From: Phoronis australis
Lineage: Eukaryota; Animalia; Phoronida
Assembly (NCBI GenBank): GCA_002633005.1
Contig: NMRA01000106.1
Span: 849,655 to 913,654, forward strand
DNA length: 64,000 nucleotides
Direction of reading: 5' to 3'
Within the stretch, counting starts at the first letter, position 1. Each line of letters opens with the position of its first letter. The notes beneath the pieces were generated by a model. That model did no database searches, had not been told where the DNA came from, and saw only the letters and a program-made list of their open reading frames with translations. Of the stretch, positions 13,301-23,159 are shown in pieces. Position numbers and translations under genes: made by a program.

Positions 13301-16300
13301 AAACAATATTAAGTATCATGTTTGAACCTTCTCTTTGGGCGCTGCATAAAATTTCAGCACCAGTGTTTATATGTAATAGGCAAACTAAATGTATGCAACA
13401 GTGGTACATATTCACATGTGACCATTCAGCTACAAATTAAAAAATAAGTCCAAAATAATCAAAATTATTTTTCAATTTTTTATGAGTTTACAAAAAAAAT
13501 GAAATTGTTGCAGTTATACATTATCTTTCTTGTCAAGGATTAAATTTCATAAAAACATTCTAAGTATTCATTTTATAGCAGACCCATAAAACTGCAATTA
13601 TTTTTAAAATCCTCGATCAAAGAACATGCAAAAATAGCACCCAATATGTTTGTAATCATGTAACTACAGTTTTGCAAGAAAATCTTGATTTGAGACCACT
13701 GCAAATTGATGAATTAACAAATTTCCTGAGAAAAAATTCATGTCTGTGGCAAAATTCTAATTTTGGAGGAAGTACACAGTCATGGAATTGAAAACATCTA
13801 AGCATTGCTTCCATGCACATGGTCATCAAGGATTTTAAAAATACAGTTTTGTAAATCTACTAGCCCAGATTGAAATTTTCAGACTAATTTTTAATTCTAA
13901 TGGAACTAAATTTCTTACCTGCAGGGCAGGAACAAGTGAACTGAGTTCCGGTCGGATCGTTAGGAACGTCAACACAGGTAGCCCCATTTTTACATGTGGA
14001 ATGGACACAACCATCAACATCTTCACAGAACTTTCCCGCGAATCCAAGACAACAGTCACACAAGTAATGATCCTGAAGAAAAAACATTTAAAGTTGCCCT
14101 GTTATAGTATTAAAAGCAACTGTTTTGCAGTCACACTTGCTCTTCCAATGAAATATCCTTAGTCTGAACTGAAACTGGTTCCAATAATCCATCTGGAACT
14201 CAATTAACTGATGTCATGGCCTAAGCCAAAAGCTGGTAGTTGACAGAAGGGGCTGGTTCTATTGCAATTTTAAGTACAGATATTGGTGATGAAGAAAAAA
14301 CAAGTGTAACTGCTATAGGTTTAAAGAAATATTGCCAATATGTAGCTAGCCTGTTCTTTATAGATGTCGAAAAGGCATTTGACATTATCTGAACTGATCT
14401 CAACTTCACTCTGGTGTAAATTACAAGTCCGTCCTGTCTAAATAGACAATGCCATGATCATCACAAAAGATGAACAAGACTTTCTAATACTTTAAGCAGA
14501 GCAAAATTATCATTTGAACACTGAAGGAAAGTTAAAAAATTAAGCAAAGTTTTATATGCTCAAATATTTATTTTGTTGACCAGGTGGAAAGCTCAGTATC
14601 CTAAAATACAGTGAAACAAAAAGTACCACCCTAAACTCGCAGGTTAACATCCTGAGCACTTAAATTGGGAAACCCTTGAGACAGGGGGGTGGTGATTACC
14701 CAATCAGTGGGCACTTAAACTGAAAATTGACCAAAAGTCGGGGATGGGCGATTACATGGGCATGGGCGTTAACCCGCGAGTTAACGCTATATTATTTTGA
14801 AAACGTTACTTACGTAAATAGAAAATAATGTAAAATCAACCATTCATAAAACAATTTTGTATCACTTTCACCAATGTCTTGAATAGACTTTCTCTGCTAT
14901 TAATATAATTTAAATATCAATTGTAAAATTTTACCTTAACATTCTACAACATACCGTATAAAAACTTAACACATACCTCTTTTCTGCGGGAATGGCAGTG
15001 CCCTCTAGCGGAGCACATGGGTATGCTATCTGCCTGAGAGCAGATGTGCGTTTTCACCAAAACATCAAGACGTAATCCGTATTCACACTTAAACTCGGAG
15101 TTTTTGGTTTTAGCTGTAACAAAACAAATTTTTTATTTTTAAGATGGAATTTTTTTGAAATTAAAAGCACATGGTGCCCCATCTCCAGCAATCCAAAATC
15201 CCTATCTTAAGCAAATGAGAGGAAAATACAAGTTTATAATGTACCAGTGGTCAATGTTTGTACCATGGTGTAAACAACAGCATATTAGGTGTGACATGTA
15301 CAGGAGAAAACCAGAACAAACGCATATCCTGTTCAAACTGAAATGTTTCAACAAAAACATAAAGTGAGTTTATTTCAACATATTCTACACAACACGACGG
15401 CAAATCACATTTTCAGTGCAAATCCATGGCCAGCATCAAGGAGAAACAGATTGTTTATTTGTTCTCATCTCCAAAATGACATATGACCCAACCACATGAT
15501 GAGTCACGGCAGCGTTCACCTACTGTGAATAATCCAGGTGGGCAATCAAACAGGTGTGCTGGTCAGATCAATGGCATCTCATTTGGTATGCAGTCTGGAA
15601 CACTGACTAATCAATACCTCCAGCCCCAGAAACTTACCTGAATAATGATGTCAACACTGCCCATAATCAATACTTAACAACACCTTGTCAACACTTGCTA
15701 CATACCACAGGATGACTAAGATTATTTCTAGCATTGCTAATGTCACACTCTTTTTCAAAGGCCCGCCCCCTGCCATTTTTACACCAACTTAACTCCAGTT
15801 TAACAATCTGCAGGACCTAAGAAAAATATCCAAGTTTGGCTAAGTTTGGAACAACGTATCTTAGTAATAGCTGACCAGATTTAAATGAAACTTTCAGATT
15901 CTATGCTTTACGAACTGTTTGCCTAATTATTACAAATTGTTTTTAAAATGATTCACTTTTATAACTGAAGAGGATCTATAAAAAATAGGACTTTTATGAT
16001 TTTGTGAAAAAATCAGAATTTGTATAAAAAATGAAATGGTAATTTAGAAAAAAGTAACTTTGAGATTTCATGTTGAAGATTTATATCAAATTTGATCATG
16101 TTATTGATGCCATGAATGTGCCTCTGCTCTTTTTGCTAAATTTTACTGAAAAGACATCATGGTAACGTGATCGCCTAATCAATGGCAGAATTGTTTAAAA
16201 TAAAAATCGAATTCGAAAGGCCTTCTATTTCTAGAAAATATAAATTACACTTTTACGGAGTTAAATGTTATAGTTTCGTAGATAACAAGTTGAATGCACA

Positions 16301-22300: not shown

Positions 22301-23159
22301 ATCAATAACTTATGGGAGCCATTATCACTTACAATGATCAATAAACTATGGGAGCCATTGTCACTTACAATGATCAATAACCTATGGGAGTCATTATGAC
22401 TTACAATGATCAATAACCTATAGGAGTCATTATCACTTACAATGATCAATAACTTATGGGAGTCATTATCACTTACAATAATCAATAACCTGTGGGAGTC
22501 ATTATCACTTACAATGATCAATAAACTATGGGAGTCATTATCACTTACAAGAATGTTTTCTGAGCACTTCACATCTAATGAAATCTTGAAACTAAACTAA
22601 ACTGCATGGAAAATAATGATGTACAGTACTTCCCAACTTATAACTGAATTTACCAGACAGTGAGCAATGAATGGCAAAAACAGCTAAAAGAAAATCAGCA
22701 CATAACTGCTGTAGCACTTTCAATTTTCAAAAGAATTTTACATGTGATTCATCACATTGTAGACTTTAGGATGATTGTACAAGTCTGTCTGACAAAATTT
22801 GATCCATAATGTGCAACTAAAGTCATAAACAACTTAAAAAGAAATCCAATTACTAGTATATATTTTCAAAATTTATTTAAAACGCACGCGAGCACACATA
22901 AACTACAAGACTGTACGTTATATCCAGCATCCGTAATCTGGTATGTTTCACTCCTTACCTGGCCGTACTGCCATTCTACTGTCATGGCGATTGCCCCAGT
23001 GTTGTTTTCCCACCGACTGACACCGGGAGGTGTCATTGACGCCATGCACCCCTCTAGCGAGTCCTTGGCAGTATAACTTGGATCCCCATCAGGGATGGCG
23101 CCATTCGCGAAAAGGTAGCAGTTGATGAGAAAGAGACTGAAGAACGCCGAATACAGCAT
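10336..23159 (-). CDS. Type I membrane protein (583 aa): signal peptide, EYS-type N-terminal cupredoxin/ephrin-fold domain, 7 EGF repeats, TM helix, cytoplasmic tail
   Basis: 11 exons, all GT-AG and phase-compatible: 23159-22959, 20858-20749, 20492-20326, 15113-14977, 14072-13919, 13187-12954, 12552-12410, 12083-11990, 11565-11431, 10909-10678, 10480-10336 (1752 nt in total). Signal peptide [20 protein letters not shown]; cbEGF motifs such as [46 protein letters not shown]; ends ...LKPKKV*. Confidence 0.9.
14634..14782. mobile_element. Short MITE-like element
   Basis: Inverted termini AACTCGCAGGTTAACATCC / GGGCGTTAACCCGCGAGTT (16 of 19 match). Confidence 0.5.
22098..22550. repeat. Minisatellite, 36-bp unit, about 12.5 copies (intronic)
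   Basis: Unit GGGAGTCATTATCACTTACAATGATCAATAACTTAT; it generates the repetitive ORFs 22016-22255 and 22051-22572. Confidence 0.95.

Follow-up and report, generated by a model that had tools for sequence, protein, structure and literature searches.

EYS is described as a secreted protein of about 3,145 amino acids with five LamG domains, and its human isoforms 2 and 3 as a signal peptide followed by five EGF repeats (PMC8127272). The alignment figure printed in PMC6063403 labels the signal peptide and EGF domains only, and in the EYS literature that we consulted nothing is labeled between the signal peptide and the first EGF (PMC6063403). In that printed alignment Drosophila Eys has no residues opposite the N-terminal region that we call the head (PMC6063403). 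DNER is the second protein of interest here. A region of 176 amino acids between EGF2 and EGF3 of DNER contains the main epitope of the anti-Tr autoantibody (PMC4573944). Earlier work, cited in PMC5021350, presented DNER as a Notch ligand; PMC5021350 itself reports the opposite, that mammalian DNER neither bound nor activated Notch1, and closes by stating that the true partners and function of DNER are unknown. DNER has already been named in a cockroach transcriptome (PMC11650548).

We have analyzed a stretch of 64,000 nucleotides of Phoronis australis DNA (the window), which contains a gene related to both.

Structure of the gene and its product

The DNER-family gene of the window lies on the minus strand between 10335 and 23159, with 11 coding exons encoding a protein of 583 amino acids (Table 1). 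The reading of the 11 exons has no internal stop codon, and 10 of 10 introns are GT..AG. A preliminary description of this DNA had given a span of 14977..23159, which corresponds to exons 1-4 only; seven further coding exons lie at 14072-10335. The peptides that it quoted for exons 1-4 are reproduced from the minus-strand coordinates of those exons.

RNA evidence was taken from three stranded raw-read runs (X1-X3), each sampled at 18-19%. In all three the RNA of the gene is that of the minus strand. Each of the 10 introns is backed by read joints in X1, X2 and X3, the minimum being one read (intron 2, run X2). The joint of exons 3 and 4 (15113-20326) is found in 11, 12 and 9 reads, and that of exons 4 and 5 (14071-14976) in 12, 13 and 18 reads. 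These two joints tie the exons of the head to those encoding the EGF repeats and the membrane helix, so that the 5′ exons are joined to the remainder in the transcript, as had been supposed. There is a strong, in-frame acceptor at 23204, upstream of exon 1. This suggests one more exon upstream of that position, probably untranslated; the placement of reads covered the gene up to 24000. No EGF-like frame was found upstream of exon 1, nor any other EGF exon in the window.

Table 1. Features of the DNER-family gene in the window; L001 and L002 are two metagenome loci described in the text
Feature	Positions	Strand	Evidence
Exon 1 (coding): start of translation, signal peptide (predicted, ~aa 1-20), short linker, first head strand (Trp63)	22959..23159	-	Joint 20858/22959 in 5, 3 and 14 reads
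Exon 2: head, Cys70/Cys76 insert, second strand	20749..20858	-	Intron phases shared with L001 and L002 (110 nt in L001 too); neither Cys varies
Exon 3: head core, strand and short helix ending at Cys127, G-x-x-Y-F-I strand	20326..20492	-	39% and 38% identity to L001 and L002; Atlas lead
Exon 4: Ala160, Cys169, last head strand, first half of EGF1	14977..15113	-	137 nt as in L002; RNA joints on both sides
Exon 5: end of EGF1, EGF2 with long loop (as in DNER EGF4 and EYS EGF2, by eye)	13919..14072	-	Pfam EGF 5.9e-06
Exon 6: EGF3 and EGF4	12954..13187	-	Two stretches match Pfam EGF, 1.5e-09
Exon 7: EGF5, calcium-binding consensus	12410..12552	-	Joint 12083/12410 in 5, 7 and 13 reads
Exon 8: EGF6	11990..12083	-	Pfam search
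Exon 9: EGF7, calcium-binding, O-glucose and O-fucose consensus	11431..11565	-	Pfam search and motif scan
Exon 10: stalk next to the membrane, membrane helix (~aa 487-510), first part of tail	10678..10909	-	Hydropathy; Pfam DNER_C 14.0 bits, profile 6-34
Exon 11, coding part: end of DNER-type tail, Tyr550, Tyr557, Tyr564, stop	10335..10480	-	Pfam DNER_C 12.8 bits, profile 75-98
3′ UTR, lower end approximate	8600..10334	-	Unbroken minus-strand RNA depth

The protein has, in order, a hydrophobic N-terminus that is predicted to be a signal peptide, a head of ~125 amino acids, seven EGF repeats (184-455), one helix and a tail of 74 amino acids. A type I membrane layout is therefore borne out, and sequence and Pfam searches agree with the earlier account of seven EGFs, a single transmembrane helix, a tail and no LamG. 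No exon has a Pfam match to LamG, and the transcript splices straight to the helix and stop codon. The head contains four cysteines, Cys70, Cys76, Cys127 and Cys169. The calcium consensus is complete in two of the EGFs (EGF5 and EGF7), and five, EGF2 and EGF3 among them, have O-glucose or O-fucose sites. The only tryptophans are Trp50 and Trp63, i.e. there are none in the EGFs. The tail has three tyrosines (Table 1) and the C-terminal residue is Val; a motif scan of its 74 amino acids found neither YxxPhi nor an acidic dileucine.

Other genes flank this one. At 1-7500 on the plus strand is the 3′ end of a gene for a channel of the IP3-receptor/ryanodine-receptor family, which is transcribed toward the DNER gene and has an exon that matches ITPR2 with E = 1.3e-06. 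The sequence at 7119-7246 recurs there in inverted orientation, as a 131-bp piece (86%) at 2290-2411. The largest subunit of RNA polymerase II (RPB1), with its heptad tail, is encoded at 27386-45100 on the plus strand, head to head with the DNER gene, and a CpG-richer stretch at 26.5-27.5 kb may be a promoter shared by the two. Within RPB1 there is a 2-kb tandem duplication (36895-38858 and 38860-40830, 94.9% identical) that repeats coding exons; a candidate reading is that it is likely two haplotypes assembled in a row. A gene like that of ETF-ubiquinone oxidoreductase (ETFDH) lies at about 48000-55000 on the minus strand (one exon matches PF21162, 1.9e-13). Repeats are also found within the DNER gene. 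Intron 1 has a 36-bp minisatellite at 22081-22550 (13 copies, 92% matches), and dispersed intron repeats at 14650-14800, 15900-16160 and 18900-19710 draw reads from both strands, with many loose ends. The 3′ UTR holds a 104-bp tandem duplication at 8843-9049. Since 108 bases are missing at this place from a contig of run X4, the duplication is either allelic or an assembly artefact.

Relationship to DNER and EYS

Toward its C-terminus the protein corresponds to DNER. The Pfam family DNER_C (PF19330) is matched by exon 10 (E = 0.061) and by exon 11 (E = 0.14). The exons were scored singly, and their matches sum to 26.8 bits, each alone being under the cut-off of 27 bits. The two matches are in register, with offsets of 480 and 478 respectively in the spliced protein, and the chance of exon 11 matching exactly this family is ~6e-6. 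Further comparison was made by eye and hand count against one mouse DNER (PMC10999696). The block at the end of the tail is identical at 14 of 24 positions with one gap, the helix ends with Cys-Arg in both proteins, and the tails have 74 (model) and 76 (DNER) amino acids. Residues 193-263 of the model align without a gap to EGF3-4 of mouse DNER (26/71 identical by hand count), including a long loop of equal length. The head aligns as well. Model residues 117-184 are identical to mouse DNER 240-307 at 20 of 68 positions with no gap (again a hand count), and that segment of mouse DNER sits between its EGF2 and EGF3. Both are type I membrane proteins with a non-EGF domain ahead of the main EGF run and no DSL domain, and the EGFs after the head pair in order.

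The correspondence is not complete. Vertebrate DNER has ten EGFs, two of them before the head, whereas the Phoronis protein has seven and none before the head; seven EGFs follow the head here compared with eight in DNER, and the first two EGFs and the Ser/Thr/Pro linker are missing. Mouse DNER has Ser292 and a single Cys202, against Cys169 and the Cys70/Cys76 pair here. [quoted passage not shown] Given that the tail also has no YxxPhi or acidic dileucine, endocytic control of the mammalian type is not supported. The presence of ten EGFs is a vertebrate trait; the mismatch narrows the claim to the DNER family, in a shorter form. We place the protein in the known DNER family as a new member of reduced length and, judging by architecture and tail rather than by a tree, regard it as very probably an invertebrate DNER orthologue. 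It had been put forward as an undescribed ligand or receptor. That description falls, as the helix and tail are those of DNER, matched by two exons in register with PF19330 and by the mouse protein.

The N-terminal part is comparable to EYS. We made this comparison by hand count against four vertebrate EYS sequences printed in S2 Fig of PMC6063403; the EYS segments quoted in the preliminary description agree with this printed alignment (PMC6063403). Model residues 169-238 are identical to zebrafish Eys at 30 of 70 positions, and residues 154-221 to human EYS at 26 of 68, both ungapped. By eye, these matches uphold the proposed homology of the head and first two EGFs with the N-terminus of EYS. 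In both proteins the signal peptide is followed directly by the head, EGF1 and an EGF2 with a long loop, and the cysteines of the head are kept. Over three blocks of the head, 42 residues in all, identities number 19 with each of zebrafish and human EYS but 14 with mouse DNER, so in those blocks the head is nearer to EYS than to mouse DNER. Yet EYS has no helix or tail, and the Phoronis protein has no LamG. Since EYS is secreted and has five LamG domains, the Phoronis gene is not its orthologue.

By these alignments, vertebrate DNER and EYS carry one common compact head of ~120 amino acids, as in the Phoronis protein. We did not find a shared DNER/EYS head stated in the open literature that was searched; subscription journals and public structure databases (AlphaFold DB, InterPro) may already label the domain.

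A head of this type is present in other animals. A metagenome scan with exon 3 as query returned five loci, three of which were dropped as short chance matches. The other two, L001:806-2573 and L002:1552-3509, are animal host DNA in metagenome assemblies, with head exons of the DNER/EYS type. Both contigs are intron-bearing and their head exons have the intron phases of the Phoronis gene. Exon 2 has 110 nt in L001 and the window, and exon 4 has 137 nt in L002 and the window. For exons 3 and 4 the similarity scores were reached by none of 2000 shuffles. That of exon 2 is modest, the scores for L001 and L002 being reached by 10 and 25 of 2000 shuffles respectively, with both cysteines kept. Coverage of the two loci ends with the first EGF.

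Fold of the head

The evidence on the fold comes from single exons, the head spanning four, and from the order of motifs. A four-part ephrin/cupredoxin core pattern was drawn from the ephrins printed in PMC6485061 and composed in knowledge of the query; its four parts follow one another in the head as they do in ephrins, and none of 200,000 shuffles fits it. Its elements, shared with ephrins in the same order, are a first-strand Trp, aromatic-x-V-x4-[YF]-x-x-C, G-x-x-Y-[YF] and C...[LM]-[KR]-[LM]-x-V-x-V. Exon 3 folded alone gave a strand, a helix and three strands, with pLDDT 55.8. In the Atlas the top matches of exon 3 were a putative cupredoxin (0.84) and a PF02298 cluster (0.81); this is a lead only, as the scores are below 0.9 and a third of shuffled proteins reach 0.8. 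By hand count the Gly of the Y-F-I strand lies at a distance of 27 from Cys127. The corresponding spacing is likewise 27 in DNER, and it is 28 in a Monosiga cupredoxin, 30 in human EYS and 43 in ephrin-A2. The Monosiga protein has the motif order of the head and is printed without the copper Cys and His, and some of the other holozoan cupredoxins printed there also have no copper ligands (PMC6485061). The head thus resembles phytocyanins (PF02298) and holozoan monodomain cupredoxins in motif order, Cys-to-Gly spacing and a single predicted disulfide, but differs from phytocyanins in its lack of copper ligands, its additional Cys pair, the EGF stalk and the DNER tail. One holozoan cupredoxin listed as monodomain, Spyx_Cu_457588, sits between Cys-rich, EGF-like repeats (PMC6485061), hinting that surface proteins combining cupredoxin and EGF may predate animals.

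Placed by motif, the residues at the copper site are Ala160 (Cys site), Lys168 (His site) and Leu173 (axial Met/Gln site). The alanine after YFI is where it had been reported. Cys, His and Met/Gln at these sites would presumably be the ligands of a type 1 copper. The copper Cys is missing also from L001, L002, DNER and EYS. Thus while the Atlas neighbors are phytocyanin clusters, the residues at the ligand sites argue against a head that binds copper in a redox role, which we consider extremely improbable. The ephrin-like motifs raise another question, whether the protein might be a stalked ligand of Eph, with a head that is truly of the ephrin type. The core motifs are present in order, and the tail tyrosines and C-terminal Val are found also in the B ephrins printed in PMC6485061, although none of the ephrins printed there has an EGF stalk. 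However, relative to ephrin-A2 the stretch from Cys127 to G-x-x-Y has 16 fewer residues, of the two Cys pairs of ephrins one is present, no exon matches Pfam Ephrin (PF00812), and the insert F-x-x-F-[ST]-P...G-x-E-F of the printed ephrins is missing. We take that insert to be the Eph-binding G-H loop. A role as Eph ligand is therefore very unlikely. The earlier assignment to a metal-free phytocyanin/ephrin fold stands in part. Motif order and the weak language-model lead make it very probable that the head has a cupredoxin-type fold of the phytocyanin/ephrin branch and is metal-free, but the ephrin insert and second disulfide are missing and the spacing is of the phytocyanin type.

Proposed function and origin of the shared head

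We consider it reasonably probable that the product of the gene is a DNER-like contact protein of the cell surface, which uses its predicted copper-free head to bind a partner in the matrix or on a neighboring cell. The seven EGF repeats would form a stalk that keeps the head off the membrane, and the head would be a beta-sandwich that binds protein and is closed by a disulfide between Cys127 and Cys169. The conserved end of the tail, with Tyr557 and Tyr564, might be a phosphorylation-controlled site of docking and trafficking. Notch, in the canonical manner, and Eph, in the manner of ephrins, are both improbable as the partner. For the more specific proposal that the head is the binding module for a non-Notch, non-Eph partner, we see the chances as evenly balanced.

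The protein shares an EGF stalk, one helix and a short tail with Delta and Serrate/Jagged, but has no DSL or DOS. No Pfam match to DSL and no DSL motif was found, the head running directly into EGF1, and the DOS motif is absent by the consensus of PMC2504490, which requires Trp in the EGFs. Together with the failure of mammalian DNER to bind or activate Notch1, this makes it unlikely that the protein activates Notch canonically. A DNER orthologue could instead act as a non-canonical ligand or modulator of Notch through its EGF repeats, the head being secondary. This would accord with the Delta-like layout, the O-fucose and O-glucose sites, the Notch and DLL1 chains that are the best PDB matches of the EGF exons, and the first report of DNER as a Notch ligand. 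Likewise reported as a Notch ligand is the EGF protein Weary of Drosophila (PMC5715700, PMC3340373, PMC11932290), which could be the insect counterpart of the Phoronis protein. Yet neither DSL nor DOS is present, replication failed for mammalian DNER (PMC5021350), and the EGF likeness to Notch is generic. We regard a non-canonical Notch role as unlikely. The reported Notch-binding site of DNER is, we assume, its first two EGFs, and their lack in the Phoronis protein counts further against it. The identity of the gene itself might also be read differently, as a separate membrane-anchored paralogue nearer to the 5′ end of EYS, or as the unduplicated forerunner of the part shared by the two genes. 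A head nearer to EYS than to mouse DNER, with the EYS cysteines kept, points that way, as does the lack of the first two EGFs of DNER, of one later EGF and of Tyr677. But the helix and tail match DNER while EYS has neither, the EGF-by-EGF order fits DNER, and the head scores are explained by faster change in vertebrate DNER. We find this reading improbable, and its forerunner form would be compatible with naming the gene DNER.

As a DNER, the gene is still informative on the origin of EYS. The link made in the preliminary description stands, and DNER is now added to it as the named partner gene. Tentatively, DNER and EYS might derive in part from one ancestral gene resembling that of Phoronis, the 5′ end of EYS (the metal-free cupredoxin head and first EGFs) coming from a duplicated DNER-like gene that was joined to an EGF-LamG Eys. 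In such a scheme, which we hold to be possible though doubtful, vertebrate EYS would be a chimera, and both proteins would bind their partners through the head, an overlooked cousin of the ephrin domain. The head would then offer the missing lead to the true ligand of DNER, make up the folded core of the anti-Tr region and give N-terminal variants of EYS a functional site. The direction in which the domain would have moved between DNER and EYS, judged from one fly sequence, is likewise tentative. The head occupies about the last two thirds of the 176-amino acid anti-Tr region.

Taken alone, the gene belongs to a family already known and is ordinary within it. With its DNER-type tail and its head of the type of EYS, a retinal-disease protein, the Phoronis protein bridges DNER and EYS. 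The shared head supplies ligand screens with a defined bait, frames the anti-Tr epitope structurally and gives EYS a testable history.
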